Shown here piece after piece: positions 8,901 to 58,900 of a stretch of DNA of 64,000 bases. The notes below the pieces were generated by a model. The model was given only the letters and a program-made list of their open reading frames with translations. It was not told the origin of the DNA and made no database searches. Where the stretch lies: assembly GCF_026571515.1 (NCBI RefSeq), contig NW_026852521.1:1-64000 (forward strand). Reading direction: 5' to 3'. Every line of letters starts with the position of its first letter. Position 1 is the first letter of the stretch. The DNA is from Ruditapes philippinarum. Lineage: Eukaryota. A program made the translations under genes and the position numbers.

Positions 8901-11001
8901 GTTTTTCTGTCATTATATAATTAATGTTTAGCTATAGCAACAGGTAATGAACCAATGAATCATGTTTCAATATGGTATTAGAATATGAGATTTACCAGTT
9001 ATCAGATAATTATTTTGTACTTTTAACTATTTTTCAAATCAATTAACGAAATGTCATTCATTGCTGTCACTCGTTGATTCTGAAAGGAAAAGTCTTAAAT
9101 TATCAGAAAATTGGTTATAAACTATATTGTATCTGGAAGACCTTTTCTGTATTATGAGAATAAATTTGTGATAAAATCTTGAAATAATCGCTGAAATATA
9201 ATTCAAATATTTATTTCACATCTTATAAAACAAAATTTATGAACTTCAGGCATTTGCGCGTCGTGATGTTCCAATTTTAAAAAAAGTCTGGTTTAATCTT
9301 AAAAACAACTGTAGGTGCTCATTCACTTAAATGTTAATAAATGTCTAAGGATCATAACTGAATCTGACAAGTTATCATAAGAACTCCATCCTCCGTGTAA
9401 CAGTTCATCACCCGTGATTATTCATGCTTTATTATTTTATTATTGAAGGTATCTTCCCAAAGCCCATTACTCTGACATGGATTTTGACTGAATAATGATG
9501 AACTTAAAAAATTCCTAGTGCACTAACCAAAACTCTGAATGAATGTTTTCTGTTATTTCCTACAATATGCAGTGTCTTGTTTTTCGATATGTATCAACAC
9601 TGTTAGAAGTGGAGCGCGTTGACCAACCCTACAACTCTTGTTTTATCGTTTTATTGCAATATTAATCGTTACTTTACAGCATTTAGGATGGCAGCTAGCC
9701 GGACTTTGTGCGATATTTGTGTGGTCAGCCATCCTCAGTATCATCTTATTCTTCACTCTCAAGAAAACAAAAATGCTCCGAGTTTCTTTTGAATATGAGA
9801 TGAAAGGTGTGTATGTTGTTTTATAATTTGATGATGTTTGTAACGTCGATTTCGAATAATAATGCTATTCATGTACTCCGCCGCTGGAAATCTGTCTATT
9901 ATTTTCTTTTTATTCCACCTGCATAACAAACATGTTCCGTCCAACCAAATCTTGGCAAGTTACATAACTGTGTCTTCTATTTTCCAGTTATTTTCCCATT
10001 TAGCTCTTAGCTATGCTACTACGGCAAGTTGGACATATCTTAAGTTATAACTGTACTTTGTTGCTAACACAGACACTGTCATGGTCATATGGCGAGGTTC
10101 CAGACTTACTAGTGGCGGAAGACCTCAGGTGTCTGTTCCATTACATTATTCCAGGCACAAGCTTGCACCTAAATAGAACCACTGACGTTCCGTAAGAAAA
10201 CATTCAATTTGACATAATGAGTAATGTTATTATGCTTGATAGAAATTATGTGGGCAATCATAAGTAATAGAAACAAGTAATTGATTTATGTATTAGGTTT
10301 GGACATACCGAAACACGGAGAAACCGCCTATCCAGCGGAGGCGTACGGTCATGGTTGGGGAGAAAAGGGCGACACTTTAGCTGGTCTGGCGAAAACAGCA
10401 ATTGCATCTAGTACAGTGACAGCCATCAATGAAGGTTAGACTTTCATTTTCTGAAAATCATTGTATTGGTTGTTATAATATATATAAAATAAATGAAAGA
10501 CATTCATAAGTATTACAAGACAATCGTATGTCTATAAAAAATAATCTCGATTAGACTTCAAACAGTAAATTCGATCCTGGTTGACCTTAAAACAACAACC
10601 GGGGTTTAAGCAGTAAATTCGATCCTGGTTGACCTTAAAACAACAACCGAGCTTTTTTAGAGAAATTATATACATGTATTCTACGAAACCTTTAACTGCT
10701 ATGAATGTTTTCGTAAATATTGTTTAATATAACATAGATTTGTTCCTTGTTGAACTAGAAAACATTAATTTTCATTATTCTTTAAGAGCTCCACGAATGT
10801 CGCGTTTTAACAAATTATTAAATGACCATTAGGTGGTCCTGTCAATACAAATTTTAAATACATTTTTTGTTATAATATTTAGATGTTTCGATGAGATTAC
10901 CACAAAAAGCAAGCCCTGGAGAGAGCCCTGAAGTTGATGCAATGAATAACAAAAATGGTCACGTTAACAAATCATTTACTGGATCATCAACACAATTATA
11001 A
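5966..11001 (+). CDS. amt: Ammonium transporter (Amt family), 5'-truncated second copy with 7 exons: 5966-6103, 6923-7156, 7459-7597, 8066-8160, 9680-9806, 10297-10434, 10883-11001
   Basis: Spliced translation gives [13 protein letters not shown]...GPRIGRF...[42 protein letters not shown] and GLDIPKHGE. Both pore histidines are present and all intron phases are consistent. No N-terminal exons were seen between 4279 and 5965. Confidence 0.9.
8474..8562. repeat. Hairpin (palindromic) repeat element
   Basis: atggccgtatataaacggttg ... caaccgtttttataaggccat flank a central aaccctcatctcgcgactcgggtt. Confidence 0.6.
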
Positions 11002-12578
11002 ATTGAAAATTCAGAAGTTGTATATATGAACATGAGTATTTTAATAAGAAGTAAAGGACAAAAAGCCTTTAAAATTCCTTATAGATGACATTGAATAATC
11101 TTACACATATTTTAGTTACATTGTACACATGTATATTGAATATTGTTTTTATTTAATATTTTTATTTTAAGTTATATTTTAATATTTGTTATATCACATT
11201 TTGATATCTTATACTTGAAGCTGATATTTTTATATATGTTTTATAGATAGATATTCAGAGTTTACTGTCATTCGAAAGCACATTTCTTTTCTTCTGTTCA
11301 ATATCTTTAAGTGATTGTCAAATATATACGCCACTAATCTGATACTGTCCGCATCTTTACTGAGTAACTCGTCACTTGCTTTTACTATATTGTCGATTTC
11401 GAACATTTAAAGGGTCAATATTTTGTACAATGTATCATATATTTTAAACAAAACATTCATTGTATATCATATAATGTTTTATCTCATTTTAGTCGTATTT
11501 TGCGTATTTGGATATTTTTTACACTAATAAAATTATTTATATAAATGTTTGCATAGTTTTTCTGTGTTACTCTGTATCGTGACAGTATAGCCATATTCTC
11601 TTGACTCTGGATAAAAATTGCAGAGCTATATAAACAATTAAATTTTAGTACCTAGTTTTGAATTCATTTGTATTTAACCACATCTTCTATCTTAAACTTA
11701 TATATTGATTATATATTGAAAAAAGTAGCGCATTGAACATACGACCGATAACTTGACGCGTCAGAGATAAAAATTAAGTAGAAATGCGTCGGATAAAAAG
11801 TAACCACTTAAATGCTTTGATAATATTTAATGCAATTAACTGATATATGTCGATGGTAATGTATTTATAACAGAAAGTGAAATAGAACTTGTATGTTACA
11901 TATTCTTCATAACTGGTAAAAATACAACATTCTACGCTTTCGAAACACATCTTTTACTGGTCTAGATTATGTGTTTAAAATAGAAGATACAACTTTAAAT
12001 AATTATTATATATAAATATTTTGATCTTGTATTGAAAGAACATCTAGGTTATTCCATTACTGATATAACTGTTGCTCAGGCTGATTATAGAGCATTAGGA
12101 ATACTAATTGCTAACATTAAAGCTTTTCTGTTTGGGGCTGTGATACTTTATCTTTTTTTAATGCTGTGCTGAATACAACTGCACATTACCTTTTGTATGT
12201 TGGAAGATATACTTCAAAATACAGCAATGTGTGGCGATGTAGAAACCTGTAATATATTTTGTTAAGAAACTGGAGTAGAATAAGTAATATGAAATAAACA
12301 AATATTTTTATGGTCTAGTATTAGGTGTTGGAATATTAGATGTTAGAATTGGAATTTCAAATTCTGCCCATTGTTTAAGAAGTATAATATGGAATGATTG
12401 TACATTAATTTTGAAAATCAGATACAAATACAAGAGTTGTTATTATATTGCTTATTATAATCATAATCGGAATAATACTGTCAATCAAGAAAATCAAGAA
12501 TCAGCGGGAAACGGTACTTGAAGAAACAAATTAAGTTTATATAAAACATTTAAGTGTAAGTGTTGAGAATTGAGTACC

Positions 12579-12990
12579 GCTCAAGCCGTGCTAGGGGGCG
12601 TAAGGGATGTTGCACTTATTCATTATCCCTCATGTACAGACTCAATCAAACCGAGTCTGCAATTTTCATGTCATTTTGTTGTGATTAATACTTCCTAGGG
12701 ATCACTTGTTTCCAGATTTTTATACTTCACAACAGCAGGTGTCAAGTGCCGTGTGGCAGCTGTAAAAAGTTGCCCGTATTTCACTTCAGTGTTGTTATAT
12801 TTTTCTGGTCATTTGGGATCATTGATGCTAGCGCTATTAAGCTCAAGCCAGTGCTAGGGGGCGTGAGGACTGTTGCACTTATTCATTATCCCTCATGTAC
12901 AGACTCAATCAAACCGAGTCTACAATTTTCCTGTAATTTTGTCGTGACTTATGTTTTCGTTGGATCACTTTGTTTCCAACTTTTGTAACT
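12579..12990. repeat. Dispersed repeat family, two tandem ~260-bp units here. Related copies at ~4070-4278, ~14570-14605, ~20236-20330 and, reversed, ~31845-32080 and ~51090-51320.
   Basis: Shared motifs gtgctagggggcgt and the hairpin cag(a/g)ctcaatcaaaccgag(t/c)ctg. The copy at 20236 matches the linker portion 12733-12825. Confidence 0.75.
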
Positions 12991-32817: not shown

Positions 32818-33035
32818 CATACATGTGAACTCTCCCACTTTTAGCGGGAGACTACCACTTTCTGCAGCCATATTTTCAAAGAATTTTCTTAAAAGAAGGG
32901 GTATTTTTACAAATTCAAGAAATCTACCTATTTTTGATTTCAGAACTTCCTTCTTTGGTTATTGCAAATTCTAAAATCTCCCTCTTTTTGAAGAAAAATC
33001 TCCCACTTGATCATTGAAAAAAATTCACATGTTTG
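32818..33035 (+). mobile_element. 218-bp MITE with a 6-bp TSD (GTATCC)
   Basis: Termini catacatgtgaa and ttcacatgtttg, gtatcc on both sides, iterated ctccc motifs. Confidence 0.8.
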
Positions 33036-33611
33036 GTATCCAAATGTGATATGGTTGCACTTGATTAGTAAAATCAGTTTAAACAGATTTTTTACTAGTT
33101 TTATTTTGATTAATGATACTCTTTTATTTTGTTCTTTTATCTATCAATGCTGAATAAAAATCAATCTTTTAATCTAAAATCCTAATGCAACTTATTAACA
33201 TATTTGTATTAGGTGTAAATGTATATTTATAACATAGGGAAAAAACATTTTGTCTACCGTTGATGCATAAATTGTATTCCCCCAACATGTATAATAAGTT
33301 GCAATATGGCTGACAATAGATGGAAACATCAGTGATGAAATTTTAAATCAGTGTTCCAACCAATAAAGAAGTGATACTGTCACTGATTTTGAAACTGTCA
33401 GTTTGGTGATGAAATAAAAGTATATTTTTCATTGTATTGCACATATTTTGACATGAAATTCTTTACTTTTATAAATTTGATTTATGCTACGTCTTTTTGA
33501 TACAATCAGTTTAGACGTTGAAAAAAGCCTCGATAATATCAAATGTAAAATGTCACAATGATAAATATAAAATGTTAAATAACTTTTTTCACGGCTAATT
33601 ATTTGGACTAG

Positions 33612-34005
33612 TGTCACAGGGTGAGAAAAATGTGCAGCCTGACCGGGACTCGAACCCGGGGCCCTCGGAATACCGTTCCATGGCTCTACCGACTGAGCTA
33701 TCCGGCCTCTTACACATCTTCTCCCCTAAATAGTGAAACATTCTGAAACGTGACATACTTCACTACAATATTGAAATTCGTCCTCGAATTTCACAAAGCT
33801 ACAAAGCAATGCTAATTGAACTCTGAGCTACAGGCAGTCCCGGTCTCCTGTTGGGCGCCAAATGTCACAGGGTGAGAAAAATGTGCAGCCTGACCGGGAC
33901 TCGAACCCGGACCCTCGGAATACTGTTCTGCCACTCTACCGACTGAGCTATCCGGCCGCTTACGCATCTTCTCCCCTAAATAGTGAAAAGTTCTGAACCG
34001 TGACA
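33612..34005 (-). mobile_element. 394-bp non-autonomous LTR element (TRIM) with tRNA-derived LTRs at 33863-34005 and 33612-33755
   Basis: Both repeats are bounded by TGTCAC...GTGACA with a 4-bp TSD CTAG. The minus-strand PBS TGGCGCCCAACAGGAGAC (33843-33860) lies 2 nt after the 5' LTR and matches tRNA-Lys. Each LTR contains GCCGGATAGCTCAGTCGGTAGAG...GGTTCGAGTCCC. Confidence 0.9.
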
Positions 34006-34051
34006 CTAGTATTTGCATAAGAGTAGATCTTCATGTAAATTAATATAGATA

Positions 34052-35059
34052 CGAGGGTTGTCAAAAAAATTCGTGCACTGCAGTTATTGTCGTGTGAGTT
34101 ATTGATAGAAAAACATTAATTATATATCACTTGAAGGGGAGATATATCTTAAATAAGAGAACAAAAGAAAAAAATATGTAACCGGCATGTCCTGAAAACG
34201 AATCGTCATACAGTTACCTTGGTAACGTAATACCGGCGCATGACAAAAAATTGGGTTAGTTCATTACTTTGATGCATCACGGTATTCTTTAAACACTACC
34301 TATTAACGTTAAAATTCACGGAAAAGTGTGTGTACGTATTCCTAACGTCACTAAAAAATATGGCGTCATTTGCCGTATTGTAACAGTCGTAAACAAACAT
34401 TTGTGTGCGGTCATCAATACTGTAATTACATGAAAATGTCAGTCGCTAAACGTCTGGAAATACGGACGATCATTAAATTTGGTGCAAATATTGGTAAATC
34501 ACCAACAGATACCTACAAAGAACTAAAAATGGCAAGCGGGATAAGTTCAGTGTCACGAAGGCTGGTTTTTAAATGGCACAAACGCTCTGTGGAAGAGAAA
34601 GAGAGTCGGTAGACGAAGACAACCAGTCAGGCAGACGTCCGTCCATAATGCCGGCGCATGTGACGAGGGTTGTCCAATATATTCCTGCACTGGTGGAATA
34701 TGCTACATGTACGTTGCATAAAAAAAACAATAAAAACTACACAATACTTTTCATCAATCATTCCTCTATTGACAGTAAAACAAATTATAACATAAAAAGC
34801 AAATACCACTTTATATTTACAAGATACAAACAGTACAATTACAGTAATGAACTAACCCAATTTTTTGTCTTGCGCCGGTATTACGTTACTAAGGTAACGC
34901 AATGACCTTTCTTTTACACGACACGCCGGTTACTCGGCTTTTTCTTTTGTTTTCTTATTTGAGTCAGATTTCTCTTTCAAGTGATATATAATTCATTTGT
35001 TTTTATTAATAACTCTCACGACAATAACTGCAGTGCACGAATTTTTTGGACAACCCTCG
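34052..35059 (+). mobile_element. Internally deleted mariner element with a transposase N-terminal HTH remnant (~34430-34650)
   Basis: TA-flanked TIRs cgagggttgtc... / ...gacaaccctcg with extended ~200-bp inverted homology. The peptide RTIIKF..GKSPTDTYKEL..SVSRRLVFKWHKR..RESVDED..SGR is a Mos1-type HTH. Confidence 0.9.
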
Positions 35060-35694
35060 TAGCACTTTATAGTTTTTAAATGAAGATGTCGTCTTGAAGA
35101 GATTTGTGATATTTTATCTTGTCACATATTGATTACTATAACACAACATTTTACATCACCACTCAGAGTAGAAGTCGTGGGACGAACTCAATATAGTCAT
35201 CTAACTAGCTTACAGTAGATCTAAAAAATAATACCTAATATAAGTCATTCAAAAGTGGAATTTGTATCAATATGTTGCGACAACAATTTTTTTTTTGTTA
35301 AATATTATTTAGTAATAGATTTACTGCTTATTATAGATTTTATGGCATGATTAATTTATAATTGTAAACATTTTATATTTCAGGTAAAAAGTTTTAATCT
35401 GTTCAGACTATGAGTTTTTAATGTAAAGCATGAAATTGTGAAGTTTAGTGTCATTCATTAACCAACAACTGCGGAAATATGCATCGATGTACTGTTCAAG
35501 CTGGTGCAGAAATAAACAATTTCACCTGTCCTCATGTAATAACGAGTAGAATTAAAAAGAACTTAATGCAGGATGAGTAGAAAAATTTTGCTTGCAAATT
35601 GGATTTAGAACCAACCTGCCCTGTAGGATGAGTGACTCTAAAAAATATTTTGTGATTCCTGTGGTGTTTAGATCTATCATCATGAAGGAATTAA

Positions 35695-35912
35695 CATATA
35701 TGTAATGTTTTTTTGATGATCAAGTGGGAGATTTTTCTACAAAAAGAGGGAGATATTTGAATTTGCAATAAACAAAGAAGAAAGCTCTGACATCAAAAAG
35801 AGGGAGATTTCTTTAATTTGTGAAAATACCCCTTATTTTGAGAAAAATCTTTGAAAATATGGCTGCAGAAAGTGGGCGTCTCCCACTAAAAGTAGGAGAG
35901 TTCACATGTATG
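35695..35912 (-). mobile_element. Second copy of the 218-bp MITE, in opposite orientation, with TSD aattaa/aattat
   Basis: Reverse complement of 32818-33035. Confidence 0.8.
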
Positions 35913-38558: not shown

Positions 38559-41318
38559 TCAGTAAATGATACCTGATAGCCAAATGCAGGACATGTGAGT
38601 CTAATGAAACTTAATAACAAGTATTCTCAGTTACATAAGACTGAGAAGCATTAATCAAGTGGTTTGTATCATATAGCAAGGAATAATTTGATAAATTTGT
38701 TTGTTCTCATTTGAGACTATTGGCCAAAGTCAAGGTCATAGTTGGAGATCAAAGGTCAACATTGTCAGATGGAGGCTATATTTTGTGTTCTGTCAATAAT
38801 TTATTCACCCTTCAAGGGATTTTGTAATAACTTGGCACAAATATTTAACAGAATAAGATGATGTGTAATTTTCCAGCACTTAGGTCCCTACATCCAAGGT
38901 CAAGGTCACATTTTTAGCTCACCTGTCACAAAGTGACAGGGTGAGCTTTTGTGATCGCTTTTCGTCCGGCGTCCGTCCGTCGTCCGTCCGTCGTCCGTCC
39001 GTCCGTCCGTCCGTAAACTTTTACTTTAAATGACATCTCCTCATAAACCACTAAGCCAATTTCATCCAAACTTCACAGGAATGTTCCTTTGGTGGTCACC
39101 TTTAAAAATTGTTCAAAGAATTTAATTCCATGCAGAACTCTGGTTGCCATGGCAACCAAAAGAAAAAACCTTAAATATCTTCTTTTCAAAAACCATAAGA
39201 GGTAGAGCTTAGATATTTGGCATGAAACATCTTCTAGTGAGTGTCTACCAAGTTTGTTCAAATAAAAGCCCTGGGGTCAAAATTGGCCCCCCCCCGGGGT
39301 GTCATTGATTTTCCCTATATGCATATAGTAAAAACTTAAAAAATCTTCTTTTAAAGAACCCAAAGAGCTAGAGCTAAGATATTTAGCATGAAACATGTTC
39401 TAATGGGTGTCTACCAAGTTTGTTCAAATAAAAGCCCTGGGGTCAAAATTGGCCCCGCCCCGGGGGGTCATTGACTTTCCCTATATGCATATAGTAAAAA
39501 CTTAAAAAATCTTCTTTAAAGATCCAAAAGAGTTAGAGCTAAGATATTTAGCATGAAACATGTTCTAATAAGTGTCTACCAAGTTTGTTCAAATAAAAGC
39601 CCTGGGGTCAAAATTGGCCCCGCCCCGGGGGTTCATTGATTTTCCCTATATGCATATAGTAAAAACTTAAAAAATCTTCTTTTAAAGAAATCGAAGAGCT
39701 GTGGCTAAGATATTTAGCATCAAACATGTTCTAATAGGTGTCTACCAAGTTTCTTCAAATAAAAGCCCTGGGGTCAAAATTGGCCGCGCCCCGGGGGTCA
39801 TTGATTTTCCTTATATGTGTATAGCAAAAACTTAAAAAATCTTCTTTGAAAAAACCCAAATAGCTAGAGTTAAGATATTAAGCATGAAACATCTTTTAGT
39901 GAGTGTCTACAAAGTTTGTTCAAATAAAAGACCTGGGGTCAAAATTGGCCCCGCCCCGGGGGTCATTGATTTTCTTTATATGTGTGTAATAGGATGGGTA
40001 TTTACGGTAATCTAAGTTAACAGTTAATCTAGTAGTTATGAGTTACTATCTTTCATACTTATTGCATGGTATATACAATGTTATTCTCAACCAATCAAAT
40101 TGTTGTTTTGAATACTGAATTGTATAAATAAGCTGACTTTGGTAATGTTAGCGAGGTTAGGTACTGTACCTACTCTGGTCAGTACAACAAGGCTTAGCCT
40201 TGAAACATTAAACTGGACTTAGTCCTTAACAAACGTTTTATGTTTATTATAAACGACCATATATAAAAATATCAAAAACATAATCTTAATTAAATAATAA
40301 ATATAGTTATTCTTAATATAAAACTAAATATAATTTGATTAGTATTCTCTTTCAATTTGTTAGGGCTTTTCATATATTAAAAGCATTGATTGAAATTGAA
40401 TTTACTAGTTGTTGTTGTTTAGTCCATCATCTTTATATAGTGACACTTATATAAATCAACTGAGCCCTGAGAATTTACTCCAGTTATAATTTGTGATCGT
40501 TTGGTCTCCGTGTAAAGCATTGATTCTCATTAGAACCTGACCACTATTACATTGGTGCCGTGACCATAGAATTCAGTGCTTGCATAGAGACCATACATGT
40601 ATATAAGTCATATATAAATTAAGTTTAGTTTGTATTGTGTAAATAATACAACTTTTACAGTGATGACATGACTATATGCATGTAGATCTATAAATTTGTG
40701 TATTGTTTGGTACATATTTTGTGAATTGTACTAAATATTATTACGTGTAGTAATTTGAGAATCTATCTCATTTTCAATTTATATTGCACTATAACATTGA
40801 TTTCATAACTGGTGACTTTATATAGTGTGTTCTTTTTGCTAATTATTATTTTTCAGTGTCTTGTGTACTAGTATAGCAAAGTACAGACATTTCATGTTAA
40901 TCTGAAATACATGTATAAATGTAAAAATTATATTGGGCATTATTCAGTGGATGTGTATTATTATATAGATGTTGGACTTTTCAATACAATAATAATAAAA
41001 ATCTAAGAAAGTTTAAATAAGGAATAAAATAGGGTAAATTAAAATTAAAAAGTTTAGGAGTTTAAAAAAAATACATAGGATATATTTGTAATTTAGTAAC
41101 ATAAAATAAGTAAACTATTTGAAAATAAACTATAAAATAAACATACATTCATGTCATAAAATGATAAAGTAAAAAAAAAATAAAAAGTTTAAAACATGAT
41201 ATATTGACTATATACTTGTTTAAAAGTGTAAGGTTTATAAATAGTGGGTAAAATATTATCTTGAGTGTATATAATATAATACATGTATATGTATATAAAG
41301 TGCAGGTAAAGGTATACC

Positions 41319-43172
41319 ATGGCACAAGGTGGTCAAACAAGTTTTTCTACCGACGGTATCGGTCAATATTATGTAACTGAACAGTTAGGATATAATGAAC
41401 ATAATATACATGCTACTACACCTAGCACGAGAATTTCAAACACTCATTCACCACTTTATGTAGATTCATTTCCTTCTAATACAAGGCAAAGGGACACAGC
41501 ACATTCACAAAGGTATAGTGAAACTTTTGATGATAAATTAAGGTCTCCATATTTGGAAGAAAATTTTGTGTTTTCCCCTATTCATAAAACTGAAATTGAG
41601 GGACATTTGAATACACCTGAACAAATTATTTATAACAGGTATAGTTCAGATATGCCTACGCGTACACATGTACAGACACCGTTAGTTTTTAAGGGTAGTG
41701 AAGAGGGGTTGTTACGAACCAGTGATGGCTTTGTTTTGTCTAATACAAACAATGGACAACAACATCAGCGCCTAGGAACGTTTACCCCACAAATGCGTTC
41801 AGTAAATTATGATAGAGAGAAAGAAACAATTTCTCAAAATAAATCTTACACAGTACCAATGGTTACTATAAGAGAATATAGTGATGTTAAGCATTCACTT
41901 CCTTTGACTACAGCACCAGGTTTAAAGAGATATACTACACCAATCACCATCAACACTTACCAAACACCATTAACGCATACATTACCTCATATGTATAATA
42001 ATAATATGGGACAGACATCTCAAAAGTGTATACAAACAAATGCTGCATACATGACACCTCATACGCAGTCAAGCTATATGCCTATGCCTAGTAACATGCC
42101 AGTATTTAATTATAATACACATGAAAATCATACTAGTCCTCATTCAAACTCAAATAGAAACATAAAACCAGACAAATTTGATGGTTCTACCACTGAGTGG
42201 ACAGATTATATAATTCATTTTGAACGTGTTGCCTCCTGGAATGAATGGAATGAGCAACAAAAGGCGTGCATGTTATCCATCAATTTAAGGGGGGAAGCCC
42301 AGCGTTTACTTTCAACATTAAGTTCCTCTCAGTTAACAGATTATAATGAAATAAAACGAGCCCTGACTCAAAGGTTCAGTCCACAAGAGCGGGAACTGGC
42401 ATATAGGTGTGAATTCCGAAACAGGAAAAGGAATTCTGGGGAGTCTGTATCAGATTATGGATATGCATTAAGACGTATAGGACAGAAAGCATTTCCTTTA
42501 ATGCCCCATACGGCACTCGAATCTTGTATCATTGATCAGTACATTCATGGTCTGGGTAATTTTGAGTTACAAAAACATGTACAATTTTTACATCCAACTA
42601 CTTTAGATCAAGCTATTAGTGCCGCGGTAGAATATGCTGCTTTACAAGGGTCACTTGATAAAAGATCAAAACCCGTAGATGACGAAATTACAAGGGGACT
42701 ACTCTTCCATTGAAAGAAAATATAGTTTCTTCCCTTAGGCCATCAAATATGAAAACTGATTGTAATCTTGAAGATTTACAGCAAATGTTATCTTCTTTGT
42801 TAGATCAAAAACTTGAACAAAAGTTTAATGAAAAAATGTCTATGCTTGAAAACAAATACTCTGATAATGTTATTAAGAAACAAAACATATCAAGACAAAA
42901 TAGCCCTTCACGTAATTTACGTGCAGATTCATCTCCACACAATAACAGACGAGTGGGAATTCAGAATAGATCCCCAAATCATTCCCCAAATAGGAATTTA
43001 AGGAATAATTCTAGGAATATTTCCTGTTCATATTGTAATAAACTGGGACATACAGAAAGTCAATGTTTTTTCAAAAGAGCGTAGAGATATTTTCTGTACT
43101 TTTTGTAAAAAGAAAGGCCATATTGAGAGCCGTTGCTTTCTAAAACAAAATGCTCCCTTACAGGAAAACTAG
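41319..43172 (+). CDS. gag: Retrotransposon Gag (capsid plus two CCHC knuckles), with 1-nt frame breaks near 42700 and 43075
   Basis: Capsid-like region KPDKFDG..W.DY..HFE.VA.WN.W...LRGEAQ...L..RF, then CSYCNKLGHTESQC and, in the next frame, CTFCKKKGHIESRC ending QEN*. Confidence 0.85.
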
Positions 43173-44502
43173 AACGGACTGAGGTTGTGGCCAAAACTTC
43201 AGTCATTTGTAAAAATACTAGGCCAATATGTGACATTACTATGACAAAATGTGACACGCAGTGTTCACAAATTAGTGAAAACACTGAAAACACGAACTTG
43301 AAAAATGTTAGTTTACCAGAAATTGACAAACATAAACATTGTTCCGTTAAAAGTACTTTAACGTCTGAACATTCAAATACAAATGAACAAAACACAATGT
43401 ATAGGAAAATCCCGGAAATAACAATTACTCCACCCGAATTAAGTCCTACTCCTACTATAACTGAGACGAATGCTCAACGTGACTTAGGTCAAAAACTAGG
43501 ACAAGAGTGTTCCGCAAACGAAGGTCAAAATGTATATCGTGCAAATATAGATGAACAAAGTACATGTACGAATACATATACACCGTTTAGTTTGAAATTT
43601 AAAGTCACTGATTCAAATCATATTGAGAGTAAGGTTTTGCAACAGAATAATGTTGATATAAAAACACCACAAAATTTAGGCCAAGAAAAGGAAAACATTG
43701 TTTCTGATATAGGTGAAAAAAATAAAACATCATGTTATTATGTAAAAACTGCTATAGGGCAGGTTAAGGGAGGAATGCTCATAGATTCTGGAAGTCCAGT
43801 TTCAATTATTTCCACCAAGTGTTTATGATAGACTAGAAAATAAGCCTAAGTTAGAACTTGTTAAAGTGCCTCTATCTACTGCAAATGGGGTCAGGCTAAA
43901 AATTGCTGGAAAATGTACACTTAATTTTGAAATTGAACATCTTGCATTTTATTTTGAGTTTTATAGTTGCTGATATTGAGGAAACAATAGGCATTTTAGG
44001 CATTGATTTCTTCGAAAATTATAATGTCAGTCTGAAAGTACACAAACGCATGCTAAAAACTAGTGTGGGAAAAGTGAGATTGTATAACTTTAACTCAAGA
44101 ATGTGTGCAAAGGTACAAATAACAGATATTCCTCATAAAAACAAACCATTATTACACAACTACGATCATGACAATTTGAATAAGTTCAGTGCAACACGCA
44201 AGTACTGGTTTATAGATAAAATAGATAATGGTAAAATGATACTTCAATATGCATTGGACAATAATCAAAGTAAATCTTTTGAAACATTAGACACAAACTC
44301 TGTGTCAATATTTCAAACATATTTATACTTTGAGAGAAGCAAGCAGTTACTTATTCAAAGCAAAATAATTATGCTAGAACTGATGTCATGGATTAAAAGA
44401 GTGAAATGCTACTTAAAAATGACCATGTCTAACCAAGACTTAGACTTATGTATGAAATGGAATGTACAGAAAAATACCAAGTTTAAATCAACACGACTTT
44501 AG
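43163..44502 (+). pseudogene. Retrotransposon aspartic protease region (-1 frame to gag), frameshifted and truncated before RT
   Basis: LIDSGSPVSII, TANG and FIVADIEETIGILGIDFF motifs spread across frames. No YxDD, RNase H or integrase motifs were seen before the PPT. Confidence 0.8.
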
Positions 44503-47500
44503 AGGAAGATAAATTGATATGAATCATTTATCCTAAAAATGTAAATGTAATACAAAGTATACATTAATTAAATATTGTGATGATAATACATAGTTTGATT
44601 TAAAATAGCAGTATTCATGTTGACATATGGAATTGAATATATGTCCACATTGTATGTCTGAAAGATAAAGAGTTTAGACTTGTCATTTATTATGTTTATA
44701 TGAATATTAATTCTTGTTTAATTTTTCAGACTTCATATACATGTACATACTCAAGCCAGTTGTAACACACAAAACACCGCTTGTAATGGTGAAACACCAT
44801 GGACTCCACATTGTTTATATTCCACTACTGCATGTGCTCAATTCAGAGTGTATTCTAACATCAGGACTTTACAGTTTCATCGAGAACATTGAAAGTGGTG
44901 TGTTGCTTGAGTGATGTTTCATTCTTATTGTAATTCTTAACTTCCTTTGTTTTTGACATTATATTTATTAAATTTAAATCTCTAATTACATGGGGTTTCT
45001 TTGTTTTTAAGGAGGGAGGAATGTAATAGGATGGGTATTTACGGTAATCTAAGTTAACAGTTAATCTAGTAGTTATGAGTTACTATCTTTCATACTTATT
45101 GCATGGTATATACAATGTTATTCTCAACCAATCAAATTGTTGTTTTGAATACTGAATTGTATAAATAAGCTGACTTTGGTAATGTTAGCTAGGTTAGGTA
45201 CTGTACCTACTCTGGTCAGTACAACAAGGCTTAGCCTTGAAACATTAAACTGGACTTAGTCCTTAACAAACGTTTATGTTTATTATAAACGACCATATAT
45301 AAAAATATCATAAACATAATCTTAATTAAAATAAATATAGTTATTCTTAATATAAAAACTAAATATAATTTGATTAGTATTCTCTTTCAATTTGTTAGGG
45401 CTTTTCATATATTAAAAAGCATTGATTGAAATTGAATTTACTAGTTGTTGTTGTTTAGTCCATCATCTTTATATAGTGACACTTGTATATAAATCTACTG
45501 AGCCCTGAGAATTTACTCCAGTTATAATTTGTGATCGTTTGGTCTCCGTGTAAAGCATTGATTCTCATTAGAACCTGACCACTATTACATGTGTATAGCA
45601 AAAACTTAAAATCTTCTTTGAAAAAACCCAAATAGCTAGAGTTTAGATATTAAGCATGAAACATCTTCTAGTAAGTGTCAACAAAGTTTGTTCAAATAAA
45701 AGCCCTGGGGTCAAAACTGGCCGGGCCCCAGGGGTGTCATTGTTTTTAACTATATGTGTATAGTAAAAACTTAAAAAAAAATCTTCTTTTAGCTAGAGCT
45801 TAGATGTTTAGCATGAAACATCTTCTTATAGGTGTCTACCAAGATTGTGCAAATAAAAGCCCTGCAACGTTGGGGGTTGGGGGTGGGCTATATACAGGTG
45901 AGCGACCTCAGGGCCATCATGGCCCTCTTGTTAATATGGTCTTATAATTATAGGACCTGTTTTGTGCCTGGTCCACAACTTTTTATTCATGAAATGATTC
46001 TGAAATGAGTTTGCACAAATATTCACCATAATAAGACAATTATCTCCCTTTATGTACTTTTTTAGTAATGAAAAATGCTCAGATATATTTCTATTGATAT
46101 ATTCATTTTTATAATGAATTTATTGTTGCATGTTTATCAAGCTTTTGCACTGAAAGTCCACATCCATACCTAAAACATTTGAAATAATATTATTGTGTGC
46201 TTCATATAAAAAACTTCCTTTAGGCATGAATCATTTTTAACCTGGCCACTATAAATTCCTGTTTTACATTTGATCCATTGTAAAAACAGTAATTTACTAT
46301 TGTTGGAACGACCCTCAAGCACAATATTGTCATTTTAAAGGTTGAGTGTATGTAGAGATGTATCCACCTTTCATAATGAACAACCTTGAATGGATATTAT
46401 TTTATATAGTTAAATACTGGTTATAGGTAATTCTTTACGACATATTTTCATTGTAACTTGCTGTAATATGAAATAGAATAATCAGTAGTCAGGTAATGTA
46501 AGATCGGACAGTAATTGACAGCATAAATGAGGGATATATTGAATTAAGTGTGAATTTAAGATTGTTTAACTACAACAAATGTAATCTTTGTTATATTGCA
46601 TGTATATGTGAAGGGCATGTTTATTATGATAATCTTGTCATCTATATGTTAGCATATAACATAACCTCATGTGAAGTTCATCTGTATGTGTGTCGCGTAC
46701 ATTAAAATTGTGTTAGATTTATCAGAGACATAGATCTATGTCTCTGGATTTATGATACTGGAAATTAAAGATTCATAAGTGCATGTTTATTAGGCTTCCT
46801 GTTCATAGATTTAGTCTGCTGTTATAGAAGTGAAAGTATATCTTACTTAATGTAATTGTGGAAGCATTCACTTTTTGAATTTATTTTTATATACATGTGT
46901 GTTTATGACAGGTAATTGAAGGTTTTATTTCTTTTTAACAGTTTAGCTAGGTTTATTGAAGTTTTACAATACTGGGCTATATTGTAGTTCTTCTAGTCTT
47001 TTACCTGGTAGTGTATATTTTCATATGAATCCAGGTCTTGTCAAGTACTTGTATATAGATCTATATGAACATATGTCTTGTTTAATTGTTGTAACAGTGT
47101 ATAACAGACAGCTGACATACTGTAATTAATATTGCCTTATCAAAGGTTTAAAATACTGTCAATATTAACATGTTTGTCACCTGTAATATGATATCTCATT
47201 AAGTATTGTTAACCTTTCAGTGTACACATTGTACTCTCTTATAGTTATTTTATTACCTTTGATGTATAGTTTATGAGTTGGTTTAAGCACTGTCTTTACA
47301 CACTTCATGTTATAATATATTTGTCTTGGTGTACAATATTGGCCTTGGTAAAACAATTGTGTTCACTGAAGCATTTCAACAATAACAACAACTTTGGAGG
47401 GTTGTTCAAAAAGTTTCAATTTGTAAAATGAGCTGAATTGTTTATCTTGCTACCGGTATGTCTATCTTGTCATGGAAATAAGTCAAGGCTGTGTTGTGGG

Positions 47501-49978: not shown

Positions 49979-52900
49979 ATGGTAGTCAGTAGAAGATGTA
50001 TCATGAACCAGTTGTGTTACCGTGTATCAAGAAGCAAGGTTCACATATTGTTATTGCTTACATCTGCATGTCTTCTACTCCTGTATAAAAGGTATTTATA
50101 CTCTAAATTAATCTTTGCCATACTTATATATTCCCTTGTTTTGTACAAGGATTTTAAAGTTCCATGCCTAAATATTTTAAAAAATCAACCTTGAGAAAAA
50201 TGTACCAAGATTTTAAGAAAAGTAACATTTTCACAGTAATGCATGATTTTGAAGTATTTATAAGGATATTTCTACTGCCTGACTAATGCAGTTATGGATA
50301 TTTCTGCATATTCTAACCTATTTCAGGTAATTTTCATAGATTTAAATGCTGTGTGCAAAGTGTAAATTACTTCTTTGTTCACTTGGCAATATTTACTTTT
50401 AGTACATTTTAAAAATGTTCATGAAAATAAGCATAAATCTGCAGTGTAAGCTTTTCATTCAGTACATATTTTTTCTAAAAATGATGAATGGTTTTATCTG
50501 GATTGAAAGATTGACAAGTTAAGATGTTTATAATAAAACAGCATGGTAAGTGTTTAGAAAAAGGGGAGCTATATTATTCTACATTATAGTTATATGATTT
50601 GCTGTTGTGTAGCTTTTGGTTAAAGTTGTGCTGGTAATTTCATTTATTATAAAACTATTCAAGGTCGTCACTTAAAACTTTGTCTTTACAATCATAATGG
50701 TAGGTCACAGATTTAAAGACTCATAACTCAAGCATTAGTCTTTACAGAGTTGTTTCTCTTTGTGAACCTAAAAATTACAATTCTTGACCAGTGGCTCTTC
50801 AGTATATACAAAAAATTTCTGACGAAATCTGTAACATTTTCCAGGAATTCAGTGACAGTTATCATAAGAACTTCATCCTCCATGTAACAGTTCCTCCCCC
50901 GTGTTATTAATCACTATAAAATTTTTCAGTGAAATACAGTCAAGTTGCTCAAGGCTGAAATAGTTACATTATACAGGCTCTTGTTTTACTATCAAGCACT
51001 GAGAATAGTTGAGCATGCTGTCCTACCAACAGCTTTTGTTTTCAATGTATATTATTCATCACTATTCAGCAGTTCCCTCATTTGTATAATTAAATAGAGA
51101 AAACAAGAATCCGTAAAGAAAGCCCAACACGTCAAAATTGAAAATCTTGCAGGCTCTGTTTGATTGAGCCTGTTCATGGACGGTACTGATAAGTGCAAAC
51201 TACCGTCCATGCCCCCTAGCACCAGCTTAAGCAGAATTCAACATTTAAACATGAAATGGTACAATTTTGAATTTAGAAATATCCGCAGATGTGTTCAAAC
51301 GGCCGTTATCATAGAACCTTCAATGTGAGACAGTAGTGCCATTCCATGAAAAGCGGCGTATGGTCCCCAAGTAATAAAAAGCGTGTGCCCTAAGTCTCTG
51401 TAGAGTACAATTGTTAATTGTGCAATTATGCAGGTTATGTTAGGTTTTGAAATAAATCTTAGTACAGTAATGATATTTTTATCTCCATTAATGAATGTGT
51501 TAAAGTCTCTGAATGACAAAATAAAGTCTGATACTGTTTTATATGTTATTGTATGCATTTAAAATTGAAGTGAAAAAATTTTCTCCCTTGAAACAGCAAT
51601 TAGTCTATGAGGCTTACTCTGTCACTGATTATACATTATATATACAAAATTCTTTATATACTTTATCTTGTTTTCAGTTCATTTGATGCAACAAACACTG
51701 GTTCAAAATACAGCTTCTCATTATTTAGAGGTAAGTGTCACTTATCTATATTTTTAGTTTAAATGTTCCTTAAAAATATATGAAAGTATGTCTACCTTAT
51801 ATCGCACAAGTCTGTTTACTTCTTGTTTAGAGTAACACTAACACTGTAAAGGTCATATATATCAAAGTTTCAGATTTTCTTATAGATGTAATACACAAAT
51901 TTCTGTCTGTATGTTTCATATTTTACATCAATATTCATGTTAGCAATCTTAAAATTTATTTGAACCACTCATGTAAATACTGATGATATAAGAGGAAACA
52001 TGGTTGTGAACCCCCTGTAGGGCTCAACCTCAGCTCCATGGCTCAACCAACTATCCTTGAGTTGAAAGGTAGACAGCTTAACCACTACAGCCTATCTCCC
52101 CTATGTTATCATTTCATACAGACATCTTGGAAGTACTCAGAGGCTCAGTTGTGCCCAAAATAATACAGCTAAGGTCTTGCTCAGTGAAGCTGGCATGACT
52201 TTATACCAAACAAACTTTCTACTAGCTGGGTTGACTGCTGCCTCACATAAAAGAATTTAATATCCAGGTGGGATTTGAACCTACAGAAAATTGAAGGTCA
52301 GGTGATTTGAAATGAGCTACTTTCATTACTTAGCAAGAAAAACCCATATTTGATTGTGGGAACTTGCCATGCTGTAAGGTAAAATGACTGATTTCTCACA
52401 CTCAGCTGCTGATTATTAGTACAGTTTCAGTGTGAAGAGTGTAAAAATATTTTTTATAGCATCATAAAAACCAGAACAAAAATTAACAAACAAAATATAG
52501 ATCAGATTTATTTGTGGTTTTGTTTTTTTTCAGAACAACAACTTCCAGAACCAACACAAGAAGATATAGACTATTTTTCAAGATTTGTTAATGTTAGTTT
52601 TGCCGTGGAGGATAATTTCATCAGTGGGGAATTAATGGGTGGAAGGGGATATTTCCTATGTAGCGTAACATTGACTAACACAGGTGTACAAACTGTAAAG
52701 GCAAAACGCTGGCATCTTTACGGTTATTTCATGAGACTTATGGAGATAGATAACTATCCTTATCAATTAGGATATCATATTAAGTCATGTGGTTTGAAAT
52801 TATTTCATGTTGGTGGCAGCTTGTACACGATTTGAACCTGACAGGGAACGTTTTCGTTGATCTCAAACCGTCCGAAATGGTAACATGTAGATTTAAGGGG

Positions 52901-55900
52901 CAAGCATTCCAGATTACTCGTTCTGATTCTATGCCAAGGTGGTATGTCACCAGCAGTTTGTCTATGCCAAAAATTATTGCTAACACGGACGATGAATCTC
53001 TGAATTATGTAAAAGATTTTACAGACAAAAGACAATACCAGCGTAGAATTGATGATAAGTCACATCCATTAACTCCACAACAAAGATTCCAGATGTTTAA
53101 AATGGACAAAAAAGAAACAAATACAAGATTTAAAATCATTCCAACACCATTATCTGTTCAAGTGAAAGAGAAAGTAGAAATGGAATTTAATACAAAGCAA
53201 TGGGTTATTATTAAGTCTGATCCATTTTTACAGGAGATTAAACATTTTTCAGGTAAGCATGTCTGATTCTAAGTAAAGAACATAATTATTAGTTTATAAA
53301 GAAAACTTGAAAATTTTAAAATTAATTTTAAACATTTCATTGACATAATATTTTTATCAAACACAAGATGGATTATTATATGTTAAACTGGACAAATGAG
53401 GCCCATCATTAATTCTAGATATGGTAATGCGTCAGTAAAGGTATTATAACTGTTACTCAAGGGACGACAGGGGTAAGTTTAAATTAAATTGGTATGCTTT
53501 AGTAAAAAAAAAGTATGCTTCAATTAAAAAAATTTGTTTTCATTGAAATAATGGACTCTAAAATAAATTTGGAATGCGTAAAAATTGCCTTCAAGGAGGT
53601 ATAGTTATGTTCAATTAAGAAAAAGAATAATGTTTCAGGTAAAATATGAAATGCTTCAGTTAAAATATGATAATACTTCAGTTAAGATGTGATAATGCTT
53701 CAATTAAGATACCTTTATGGTTCAATTAAGATATGATAATGCTTCAGTTAAGATATGGTGATGTTTCAGTTAAAATACTGTAATGGTTCATTTAAGATAT
53801 AGTAATGCTTCAATTAAAAAATAGTAATGCTTCAATTAAAATATAGTAATGTTTCAATTAAGATATAGTAATGCTTCAATTACAATACATGTATTGTCAT
53901 GGTTCAAATAAGATATGATAATGTTTCAGTCAAGATATGGTAATATTTTAATAAAGATATCATTATGGTTAAATAATGCTTCAATTAAGATATTGTAATG
54001 CATCAATTAAGATATGGTAATGTTTCAGTTGAGAAAAGTAATTCTAAAGTCAATTTATGGTGTGATAATGCTTGACTGAAGATTGGGATTATTTTTTATA
54101 TTTATAATTTACCAACAATCTTGTTCTTTATTACAGATGAGCTGTCAATGAAAATTGTAAAGTCTAAACCAATGAGAAAGTATATCGAGATAAGGGAAGG
54201 TCCTGTTATAGTGGACATGGATGAAGTATCTAAAGAAAACAAGGATGGTTACAGTATTGAAGCTTTTTCATCTAGAGAATATATTATTGTTACCGCAGCA
54301 ACAAATGAAGCTTTATTTTATGCATTCCAAACTTTGAGTAGTATTTTCTTTACACCGGAAGCCCGTACAAGTGTTGGTATACCAATAATGTTACCAGAGT
54401 TTACTATCAAAGATGCACCAAGATTCTCTTATAGAGGTCTACATATAGGTAGGTTAGATATATAAATATCTGTATAGACAAGAGAATTATTGAAATGATA
54501 TTAGATAAACTATGTACACCACTGCTGTCAATTTATGAAGTAATAAATAAAGGAAGTTAAATTTGCTGTATTATAAGTTTGTTATAAAGGTTTAGGTAAG
54601 GTTATATAACCATGAATTTATTGTTTTTTTCAATATAACCATTGTCTAGCAGCTCTGAATATATATGCAAACAACCATTTATATGTATAGGGTCAAATAC
54701 ATAACCTAGCTGTAATAAATCTTTATAACTATTAAAATATGCATGATTTGGCCTATACATGTGATATGGTGCCTTAAGAAAATATTCAAATGTAAAATAA
54801 ATTGTGAGACATTTAAAGCTACATGCCCCTAAACAAAGAAAAAGGTTTTTAAAAATACTTCAGAAAAATGTACTTTAAAAGAATAAGAAGTATAGAAATA
54901 TTTACAATACAACATGTTTCATGCATGATTACGGTAGTCTGAGTATTTTGTCATATTTCTAGCAAAGAGCCTTGTTACTTAAAGAGTAATAGCTATTTTT
55001 GAAAATTTTAACTCATTTTATGTTATTCATATGAATAACATGTATGCAAAATATTGCTTTTCATGGATTTTTTTTGACATTATTTTCAGATGTATCCCGT
55101 AATTTTATAAAAGTTGAAGAAATTTTAAAGATCATTAATATAATGTCAATGTACAAGATGAATAAACTACATCTACATTTATCAGATGATGAAGGCTGGA
55201 GACTTGAAATACCTGGAATACCAGAGTTAACACAGGTAATCTTATAATAAATGTCCACATATAAGATGATGTGTCTCCTTTAACCAATTAGTTATGATCC
55301 TGCACATCATCATTACATAACCACCTTCCACTGTTGATTAAACTTTTACTGAAGGTTTTGATATTTTTAATGTAAAAAAAAGAATGAAATGTAACATACA
55401 GAAGAATCTGTTTATGTCAAAGTTTCATATGGTAAGCATGATGTCAGACTTATAGTTTTATCCCAGACTTTTGGTCTGCTAATATCTATTATATTTCTCT
55501 CCCTCTGTAGTCATTCATTCTGTTTCTAATCCAACTGACTTTTAGTGGCAGAATTTTATCACTCAATCACACATACTTATTAACAACTGTGTGAATCAAT
55601 TAAGGGAGTTGTTTGATTTGAGGATATAGGCAATATTATTGATATGATGCACATTCCTAATCTCTTGATACATATGTACAATTGAATAACTGCTCCCTAC
55701 AAATTTTTTTCTTGGCTTACAGGAATGTAGTGTCCTCCAATAACAGCCATTTACTTTCACAAAAATTAAATGACCCTGAAAAATACACATTTTTAGCTTG
55801 ACTATTTGAAGAATATGAGAGCTATTGTAGTCGCCCCGGCGTCGGCGTCAGCGTCCGCGTCGGCGTCTGCGTTGGTTAAAGTTTTTTGAAAAGTCAAATA

Positions 55901-58900
55901 TCTCAATTATTACTTGAGATATTCAATTGAAACTTACAATACTTATTTATAGTAACAAGGTACATCAGATTGACAAGTTGGATAACTCTGCCTACAATAT
56001 TGACAGAATTATGCCCCTTTTTAACTTAGAAATTTTGGTTAAAGTTTTTTTGTAAAGTCAAATTTCTTAATTATTGCTTGAGATATTCAATTGAAACTTA
56101 CAATACTTATTTATAGTAACAAGGTACATCATATTGACAAGTTGGATAACTCTGCCTACAATATTGACAGAATTATGCCCCTTTGGAACTTAGAAATTTT
56201 GGTTAAAGTTTTTTTGTAAAGTCAAATATCTCAATTATTGCTTGAGATATTCAATTGAAATTTAAAATACTTTTCTATAGTAACATTGTACATCAGTTTG
56301 CAAAATTGCATAACTCTGCCTGCAATATTTGCAGAATTATTTGCCCTTTTGAAACTTAGAAATTTTGGTTAAAGGTTAAAGGTCTTCAAAGATATTTATT
56401 TGAAACTTTACACATGCACTTAGGGTCATAATTGGAGGGTCATAATTGTATGTCACTGACCAAGTTCCATAACTCTATCTTGCATTAAGGCTGATTCAAA
56501 TCCCCTTTTCTACTTAGTCTCTTGGTTAATGTTTACATGCAAGTTTTACATATCTCAATAACTATTAAAGATATTTATTTAAAACTTCACATATTTAGGG
56601 TCATAATTGTAGGTCTGACAAAGATCCATAATTCTATCTTGCATTTAGGCTGATTTTTCTCCCCTTTTTCAACTTAGAAATTCATGGTACAGTTTTGCTT
56701 GTAAGCTGTTATCTCAATAACTACTGAAGGGTTTCTGCCTTTTTTGGGACAATTTTATGCATTCATATTAATAAAGCAGTGATTTACTTGATTAAACATC
56801 TTAATAACAAGCCTTTGTACCTTTTCTGTCAAATTTATGTATTCATAAGTAATTAGTATTATTATACTCAATAAAACACCCTTGTGACATTACTTTCCGA
56901 ATAGTCAAGCCAATACTGTATAATTAGACTCTCTCTAAGGCCTATAACATGAATTTATAAAAAAAAATTAGCCCTTTTGTGAAATTAAAAAAATTTAACA
57001 TTATCAAGGCTCTTTTACTATCAAGCACTTGGAATAGTCGAGCGTGCTGTCCTACTGACAGCTCTTGTTTTTTTATATAATTCTAGAATTGATTTTATAT
57101 TGGTCAAAATGATAATCATGTAATAGCTACATTTTTTGAAAGGGCTGGTGTGGTCAAGTGAACAAATAATAGTTTACAGTTTATACAGTTTATTTTGGCT
57201 AAATCGGCATGAGAAAATGCCTTTGGCCATTTACAATAACTTATAATATTTGGTAAACAAAGCTTTTGTGTATATTTGTTACAAAATTATATAACTGATT
57301 TATCTTGATAACTGCCTGATAATTTTTTGTTTTCTTTTTCAAATTTCTACACAATGTAGTCAAATGAATAATATATATTGTTAAAAATTGTCCTGAATTG
57401 TATGATATATTGAACATCATATAACACATATTTTTAAAGGTGGGATCTTCACGCTGTCATGATCTCAAAGAAGAGCAGTGTATTTTACCTATGCTTGGAT
57501 CAGGGCCTTACTCTAATACATCAGGATCTGGATATTTTAGTGTCGGGGACTACAGAGAAATTCTCCTTAATGCAAAAGAACGTCATATAGAAGTTATACC
57601 AGAATTTGATATGCCTGGACACAGTAGGGCAGCTATAAAGTCTATTCATTCCAAATCACAGCGTTCGATACGTAAAGACATGAAAGCAAACCTATACTCT
57701 ATTATAGACAGTGAAGATGTACCTAAATTTAAATCAGGTCAACATTTCACTGATGATGTCATGAACCCGTGCATGGATTCCACGTATGATTTTGTCAAGA
57801 AGATCATAATGGAAGTAAAGAAGATGCATCAAGATATACAGCCTCTAAAATTTTACCACTTTGGTGGTGATGAGGTGGCTCAGGGAGCATGGGATGGTTC
57901 CCCTGAATGTAGGAAACTCAAAAAGCCAACAGGAGGTAAGATATTGATCAAATGTATAAATGACAAAGTATCTTTACTGATGAAAATTCTCAAAAGCTTT
58001 TACTAAATGAGTCAATTTTGGAGTATTGTCATCAGTGTTTATTGAAATTGTTTTCATGTTTTGTTATCTCTAGATACTGTGTAACTAGAGCAAGGAAATA
58101 ATGTTGATAAAATTATATGTGTAGACTCCTAGTTCTTATTTGTCTGAATCATGTAAATACAATCTGCAATATAGGAATGGCTTTATCATTTTGTTAAAGG
58201 GAAACCACTGTAAGTTTTATGGGGCAAATAATTTCTTTCAGTAATTTCCCTTAGATTATCTGTTGAACTAACTAAATTATAAGTGTTTTACTACTCCTCA
58301 TTTTAGTTAAGGTAGATTATAGAATTTCAAATCATTACGGAAATAACTGTATTCTGTAACTCATTGCCGAATATTTACCATTCATATTTTAAATACAGTT
58401 TTATATAATGTCTTTTATATTCCACACTTTTGTAAGTTTAGTAGTTTTAAATTAAGTAACCATATTAACATAATTATTGATGTATAGTTAACCTTAAAAC
58501 CCTACATCTATATAGAATCTTATCATTTTCAGAAAACATGGGTCAGTATGATTTGATGAAATATTTTATCAACAATCTTACACGTATTGCCTTGGAAGAA
58601 TCTATGTCTGTAGGAGCTTGGGAAGATGGCATGATATCACATGACATTGAAAACGTAGGATTACCTTTCCCACGTGATGCATTTAAAAACAAGTAAGTTT
58701 TGATTATGTGGAACAAAGTTGCATAGTTTTTGAAAGAAACAGTCTTATGTATAATGGAAAGTAACTTTCAAATATCTACAATGCAAATTGTGAATTCGTT
58801 AACTTAAACTTTGCATGAGTAAAGTGACATTATGCCTATCCAAGTATAAATGTGGGGACTAAAGGGAAAAGTCCAAATAAGTTTATATTTTGTGATGTTT

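Follow-up and report, generated by a model that had tools for sequence, protein, structure and literature searches.

A probable aged copy of a Helenus-type miniature LTR retroelement with tRNA-like units in both LTRs in Ruditapes philippinarum

Overview

The 394-bp element at positions 33612-34005 (minus strand) of a Ruditapes philippinarum contig is very probably an aged, gene-less copy of a many-copy TRIM of the Helenus type, whose family is likely to be transcribed by Pol III from a tRNA-like unit in its LTR and to be copied and inserted by the proteins of separate Gypsy elements. This particular copy is probably no longer mobile. All positions refer to the stretch of 64,000 nucleotides that was analysed (contig NW_026852521.1, positions 1 to 64,000), hereafter called the window.

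Structure of the element

The boundaries and main parts of the element are as follows.

34006-34009, no strand: target-site duplication CTAG on the side of the 5' LTR (from sequence)
33863-34005, minus strand: 5' LTR of 143 bp, TG...CA, with a 6-bp terminal inverted repeat (from sequence; loose contig ends behind 34005)
33756-33862, minus strand: internal part of 107 bp, non-coding, without a run of four or more Ts (from sequence)
33850-33860, minus strand: primer-binding site of 11 nt for tRNA-Lys-CTT (by-eye comparison with the text of Fig. S2C in PMC10886601)
33756-33770, minus strand: position of the polypurine tract, weak in this copy (from purine count)
33612-33755, minus strand: 3' LTR of 144 bp (from sequence; loose contig ends before 33612)
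33608-33611, no strand: target-site duplication CTAG on the side of the 3' LTR (from sequence)

Both LTRs start with TGTCAC and end with GTGACA, so that each carries a 6-bp terminal inverted repeat. The chance of a 4-bp flank match is ~0.7%, with CTAG paired for this copy alone. The primer-binding site (33860-33850) is separated from the LTR by 2 nt, and its 11-mer is the sole match in the window at one mismatch or fewer, against a chance mean of 0.16. The polypurine tract is poor, with 9 purines in the last 15 nt and a longest purine run of 4. The element has no coding capacity: the sole overlapping stop-free frame of at least 90 aa extends out into the flank. It carries no A-rich or tandem-repeat tail, and no second copy is present within the 64-kb window. 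The initial annotation had reported two LTRs of 143-144 bp, a 107-bp internal region, a CTAG duplication and a Lys-type primer site, each of which was confirmed by coordinates, and its description of a small LTR retroelement that encodes no protein and carries a tRNA-type Pol III unit in each LTR is likewise supported. A scan of the stretch for bacterial promoters and terminators, which is irrelevant to the present question, found nothing.

tRNA-like units in the LTRs

Each LTR contains a tRNA-like unit with the following features.

33886-33957, minus strand: tRNA-like unit of the 5' LTR with poor pairing in the anticodon stem; anticodon typed as Thr-AGT (ARAGORN, Rfam)
33939-33950, minus strand: A box of the 5' LTR (from sequence)
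33897-33907, minus strand: B box of the 5' LTR (from sequence)
33877-33881, minus strand: T5 run of the 5' LTR, a predicted Pol III terminator that would have to be read through for a full-length RNA (putative function)
33635-33707, minus strand: tRNA-like unit of the 3' LTR; anticodon typed as Thr-GGT (ARAGORN, Rfam)
33689-33700, minus strand: A box of the 3' LTR (from sequence)
33646-33656, minus strand: B box of the 3' LTR (from sequence)
33626-33630, minus strand: T5 run of the 3' LTR, predicted 3' end of the full-length RNA (putative function)

The two units score 42.7 bits (33886-33957) and 46.5 bits (33635-33707) against the Rfam tRNA model, the gathering cut-off of which is 29, and in the region 33300-34300, searched at E values up to 1, both of the two Rfam matches are tRNA and nothing else was found, 5S rRNA included. 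ARAGORN detected two tRNA genes in total in the 64 kb, one in each LTR, and typed both as tRNA-Thr, not as tRNA-Lys. The claim that each LTR holds a tRNA-like unit followed by a T5 run thus stands, as does the claim that the A and B boxes are identical between the LTRs; the T5 run is also identical. The strand of the element has three runs of four or more Ts: besides the two T5 runs there is a single one ahead of the 5' tRNA-like unit, and the 3' LTR has no such run ahead of its T5. Only 48 nt of LTR sequence lie upstream of the tRNA-like unit.

An explanation that has to be weighed here is that the units are working tRNA-Thr genes and that the element spreads usable tRNA genes. The ARAGORN typing agrees with it, as do the largely paired stems of the 3' unit (acceptor 6/7, D 4/4, anticodon 4/5 and T-stem 5/5, G-U pairs included) and the report that the Helenus-3_CGi group is among seven bivalve families able to encode tRNA-Thr (Kojima 2024, PMC10886601). 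Against this, the two units disagree in their anticodon (AGT versus GGT), and the anticodon stem of the 5' unit is broken, with two standard pairs plus one G-A, one C-G and one A-C position. The Thr-GGT anticodon is rarely used in eukaryotes. In addition, free folding of the units is no better than that of shuffled sequences (z -0.28 and -0.14), and a cloverleaf by free folding was rejected on these energies. Working tRNA-Thr genes are therefore a very unlikely explanation. For the putative derivation of the units from tRNA-Lys, as put forward in the initial annotation, there is the figure legend of Kojima 2024 (PMC10886601), in which the molluscan Helenus elements are aligned with tRNA-Lys-TTT, whereas the anticodons of our element read as Thr.

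Two further candidates were rejected. Self-priming by the LTR's own tRNA-like unit would have had at most four contiguous matches to the primer site in all six trial ends, and Kojima 2024 (PMC10886601) gives the same finding for Helenus. A 10-nt stretch of the internal part (33845-33836) that is complementary to the T-arm was dismissed as a family trait because 1,746 of the 1,752 depth units in run X1 differ at 33840.

Divergence between the two LTRs

When the two LTRs are aligned, 13 of the 144 columns differ (12 substitutions and one gap; K2P 0.09; 91% identity), and the insertion is therefore not recent. Six of the 13 differences fall in the 20-nt region of the anticodon arm, where a cluster of mismatches had been claimed, and five of these form one contiguous block. 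The clustering has p=0.003 when each site is counted and p=0.25 when adjacent changes are taken as one event. The corresponding values are 0.09 and 0.29 for the absence of changes from the 23 nt of the boxes, and 0.003 and 0.05 for the last 49 LTR columns, which contain no differences. The changes at 33680 and 33681 of the 3' LTR are CpG transitions relative to most matched copies. The initial annotation had gone on to read these mismatches as selection of the unit as a promoter. That reading is unsupported, judging from the event-based values of 0.25 for the cluster and 0.29 for the clean boxes, because differences within the LTR pair of one copy are expected after insertion and because two changes in the arm are transitions of the CpG type. 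The reading of the units as putative promoters rests instead on conservation across families, as in Kojima 2024.

Relationship to known TRIMs

Helenus comprises TRIMp3 elements with a tRNA-like unit in the LTR and lengths of 311-1,263 bp; animal Helenus elements generate duplications of 4 bp and are regarded as dependent on Gypsy elements, and many bivalve families are primed by tRNA-Lys, a site that is also used by Gypsy-125_CGi (Kojima 2024, PMC10886601). The A and B boxes of our element match the consensus motifs given there, and its lengths (143, 107 and 394 bp for LTR, internal part and whole element) are within the limits that Table S1 gives for bivalve families. By-eye comparison with all 51 bivalve consensus pairs found none that is the same family, the nearest being Helenus-3_CGi, -3_CVi, -4_SaGl and -4B_SaGl. 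With the Helenus-3_CGi group our element shares the Lys site (tRNA-Lys-CTT), the 4-bp duplication, a length below 1 kb and A and B boxes in both LTRs, as well as, by eye, the LTR start TGTCAC, the LTR end CCTGTGACA and a loop of the Thr-GGT type. By eye, the likeness to Helenus-3_CGi itself extends to the start and the last 9 nt of the LTR, to the letters of the anticodon loop and, within the internal part, to the first 13 nt and an identical motif of 19 nt. It differs from this group in the 48 nt of LTR sequence ahead of the tRNA-like unit, in both the acceptor stem and the anticodon stem and in the central stretch of the internal part. Two other features set the present copy apart from Helenus as described, namely its weak polypurine tract and its venerid host, which is outside the listed pteriomorph orders. 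A text search of the supplement with 11 short motifs of this copy left nine unmatched (one of the nine was mistyped), and the other two matched only LTR boxes of brachiopod elements. On this by-eye comparison, the element appears to represent a new family within the established Helenus group, which Repbase or Dfam may already hold; the earlier suggestion of a new member rather than a new class is thereby supported.

The name Ajax that had been proposed for the tRNA-bearing group is wrong, since the tRNA-bearing group is Helenus and Ajax contains a piece of 5S rRNA. Ajax elements, known from two nemerteans, are primed by tRNA-Leu and make 5-bp duplications (PMC10886601). They resemble our element in being TRIMs whose LTRs carry a Pol III-type unit, and the 8-mer core of the hairpin described below also lies ahead of the polypurine tract in Ajax-1_NGe. 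Membership in Ajax was rejected on the basis of the tRNA-only Rfam matches, the 4-bp duplication and the Lys primer site. Cassandra, a plant TRIM with 5S rRNA, is the only validated TRIMp3 as summarised in PMC10886601; according to that summary it shares with our element a Pol III promoter derived from a small RNA in both LTRs, and the model of transcription from the 5' LTR unit to the 3' LTR unit is borrowed from it here. biv-TRIM is a TRIM of venerid clams including R. philippinarum (Satovic 2019, PMC6934838). As far as the portions of that paper used here go, it resembles our element in its venerid hosts and an inner part with inverted repeats, and it differs in having repeats of 202-218 bp, an inner part of 77-80 bp and no canonical primer site; these portions mention no Pol III unit. 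Membership in biv-TRIM was rejected on repeat length and primer site.

All 51 molluscan Helenus families come from five pteriomorph orders (Kojima 2024, PMC10886601), and Ruditapes, Mercenaria, Venerida and clam are mentioned neither in the main text nor in Table S1 of that study. Because R. philippinarum belongs to Heteroconchia (Venerida), the element would widen the molluscan range of Helenus beyond Pteriomorphia to include Heteroconchia, which would imply either an older origin of Helenus or horizontal transfer. Of later papers, PMC12859917 and PMC13570524 merely cite Helenus in the portions used here, and a paper on bivalve SINEs (PMC11481361) does not mention it.

The tRNA-like units have a further implication, as LTRs called tRNA-Thr by tRNA finders would inflate tRNA gene counts. 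The portions of PMC9679248 used here give 791 tRNA-Thr genes for Mercenaria mercenaria, 339 for Ostrea edulis and 153 for Crassostrea virginica, and leave the excess unexplained. Helenus elements might underlie the excess in venerids.

Dispersed copies in sequencing runs

Four of 24 sequencing runs were aligned at 82% likeness to a 901-base stretch that includes neighbouring repeats: X1 and X3, which are probable DNA runs, and X22 and X24, which are ordinary RNA-seq runs. In X1 and X3, 3,735 and 6,340 contigs, respectively, matched this stretch. Loose ends lie ahead of 33612 in 69 contigs of X1 and 106 of X3, ahead of 33611 in a further 44 and 78, and behind 34005 in 113 and 164. Flank agreement at both termini is ~0.4, with TATA as the modal flank letters on either side, and the flanks are therefore many and unrelated. 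The contigs of X1 and X3 thus reveal a dispersed multi-copy family with fixed termini. No empty sites were found among the joints listed (15 of 175).

The internal part is itself repeated, with X1 bins of 1,750-3,260 compared with ~12 in a near-unique flank bin. The LTR bins are deeper than the internal bins, which would fit many solo LTRs; the depth sums give no copy number. At LTR position 18, both LTRs carry a letter absent from 397 of 437 and 37,260 of 37,802 X1 depth units, and such a rare letter common to both is expected if both LTRs derive from one template.

These data bear on the explanation that a tRNA-derived SINE or a tRNA pseudogene was duplicated locally in tandem and mimics an LTR element. 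Two 91% identical copies 250 bp apart and a weak polypurine tract are what such a duplication might leave. It is, however, largely refuted by the repetition of the internal part in the runs, and the inverted TG...CA ends, the primer site 2 nt from the LTR, the 4-bp duplication, the homology to published Helenus internal parts and the missing A-rich or tandem tail also speak against it. We regard this explanation as extremely unlikely and retain the reading as a Helenus-type TRIM.

At the position of the polypurine tract, the contig letters are C-rich on the plus strand, and most matched copies carry letters other than those of this copy at four listed places, which suggests that the tract has decayed in this copy. 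At these four places, ~5-23% of the depth or reads in X1, X3 and X22 lack the majority letters, and 27 of the 28 X24 reads agree with this copy at 33760. This minority, together with the X24 reads that are nearly all like this copy, makes a subfamily with a weak tract possible.

The left flank of the element (33546-33611) is also repeated, with a depth of ~520 in X1. In other copies the similarity stops or breaks down at 33610, with no visible continuation from the repeated left flank into the right flank.

Transcription and proposed mechanism

In the RNA runs, 90% (X22) and 73% (X24) of the records run on into unlike sequence, and only 96 of the 6,988 X22 reads are 99% alike. The first mates are split about equally between the strands, so that the strand of the transcript is not readable from these runs. 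Neither read starts nor read ends accumulate in X22 or X24 at positions that would mark a discrete RNA product; such libraries would miss small RNAs and speak neither for nor against transcription by Pol III. In X22, ~210-226 reads cover each of 33688-33723 and 33938-33973 with one fixed flank on each side and only the A-box region in common. Their flanks resemble another LTR start and another B box, which suggests an expressed sister family.

By analogy with Cassandra, initiation by Pol III is expected at the tRNA-like unit of the 5' LTR or immediately ahead of it. The majority of transcripts would be expected to stop at the first T5 run, at ~81 nt, and those that read through it would cross the T4-free internal part and stop at the second T5 run, at ~332 nt. 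Read-through of the T5 in the 5' LTR is, we infer, a sound assumption. An RNA of ~332 nt would have the unit at both ends, so that the tRNA-like unit could serve as the repeated R for strand transfer. The primer of reverse transcription would be a host tRNA-Lys, and a hairpin before the polypurine tract, described below, may help the Gag or reverse transcriptase of the partner to recognise the RNA. A Gypsy partner would supply reverse transcriptase and integrase, the latter making the 4-bp duplication. No Lys-primed autonomous partner is present within the 64-kb window.

The RNA reads, which carry mostly flanking sequence and lack sharp ends, are also what could be expected of an ordinary Pol II TRIM that carries the tRNA-like unit as a passenger, or of an element mobile only via host read-through transcripts. 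The T5 run in the 5' LTR, which obstructs Pol III, points in the same direction, as does the statement of Kojima 2024 (PMC10886601) that the Pol III promoter of Helenus has not been validated. However, the 48 nt upstream of the tRNA-like unit, the fit of the boxes to the Helenus consensus motifs, the position of the T5 run directly behind the unit and the T4-free internal part all argue against such an element. We therefore consider a Pol II TRIM unlikely and Pol III transcription of the family the likelier reading.

Hairpin before the polypurine tract

The internal part contains one further feature.

33772-33793, minus strand: perfect 9-bp hairpin with an AGGA loop, 16 nt before the 3' LTR, a candidate packaging or recognition signal (from folding and motif search)

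This is the only stem of at least 6 bp around an RGGN loop in the window, compared with a shuffle mean of 0.9, the motif having been defined after the hairpin was seen. Among 20,000 shuffles of the internal part, a 6-bp stem occurred in 0.12% and a 9-bp stem in none. When the predicted full-length RNA is folded, the hairpin is present and its pairs have probabilities of 0.69-1.0. Its folding z-score is -3.07, in a segment picked after the hairpin was seen, and that of the internal part as a whole is -0.53.

The 8-mer core of the hairpin occurs 19 times in the supplement of Kojima 2024, in a text search from which line breaks may hide matches. Eighteen of these occurrences lie just ahead of a polypurine tract (seven in bivalve, ten in wasp and one in Ajax elements), and the remaining one is in a fish LTR. 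No fungal entry of the supplement contains the core; the composition of the fungal entries differs. By eye, 24 of the 51 bivalve internal parts have a stem of at least 6 bp with an RGGN loop in the same place and differing stem letters, 15 have a hairpin with a different loop, and no hairpin is visible in 12. Hairpins were also seen by eye in nemertean Helenus and coelacanth families. The text of Kojima 2024 (PMC10886601) does not mention the hairpin, and we found no prior description of it or of this family in the literature listings searched.

It is possible that the hairpin acts as a packaging signal. The Gypsy-like element at 39985-45589, with its His primer site, has no RGGN hairpin ahead of its polypurine tract, and this absence counts against a general Gypsy signal. 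How the dependence of a TRIM on its partner is maintained is not known (Kojima 2024, PMC10886601), and a 22-nt hairpin with varying stems would be a direct candidate. We tentatively propose, as a broader picture about which doubts outweigh confidence, that the RGGN-loop hairpin is a shared signal, conserved in structure, of Pol III TRIMs of both the tRNA and 5S types that hijack Gypsy particles in molluscs, nemerteans, wasps and coelacanth, that Helenus is present in heteroconch clams and that its LTRs constitute the venerid excess of tRNA-Thr genes.

Genomic neighbourhood

The element is located within a 3.1-kb element with 221-bp inverted ends (88%; 32818-35912), and an adjoining 1-kb element (34050-35061) has 224-bp inverted ends (85%) and a TA start. 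These two are probably nested non-autonomous DNA transposons. Among the nine frames tested, no Pfam-matched exon lies near the element.

The Gypsy-like LTR element (39985-45589, plus strand) is young, with LTRs of ~567 bp that are 98% identical, a TGTG duplication, a primer site of the tRNA-His type and a clear polypurine tract, and it lies inside a 165-bp tandem array. It has gag and zinc-finger matches with broken frames behind them, and no reverse transcriptase match was obtained in the frames tested. As a partner it was rejected on its His primer site and missing RGGN hairpin. A degenerate tRNA-like unit with a B box at 59000-59100 (plus strand), which was not called by ARAGORN, may be the head of a SINE.

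Short microsatellites followed by 164-166-bp tandem arrays are present at 38911-39988, 55837-56570 and 59661-60967, and presumably resemble tandem-repeat-bearing elements of bivalves. A 4.3-kb direct duplication with 99.3% identity (2-4278 and 8527-12796) lies around an ammonium-transporter exon (6917-7231) and represents either a recent duplication or uncollapsed haplotypes. The region 52413-58006 (plus strand) contains exons of a family-20 beta-hexosaminidase gene, one of which (57425-58003) matches a beta-hexosaminidase-like protein of R. philippinarum at 99% identity across 86% of the exon and one of Mercenaria mercenaria at 80% identity.
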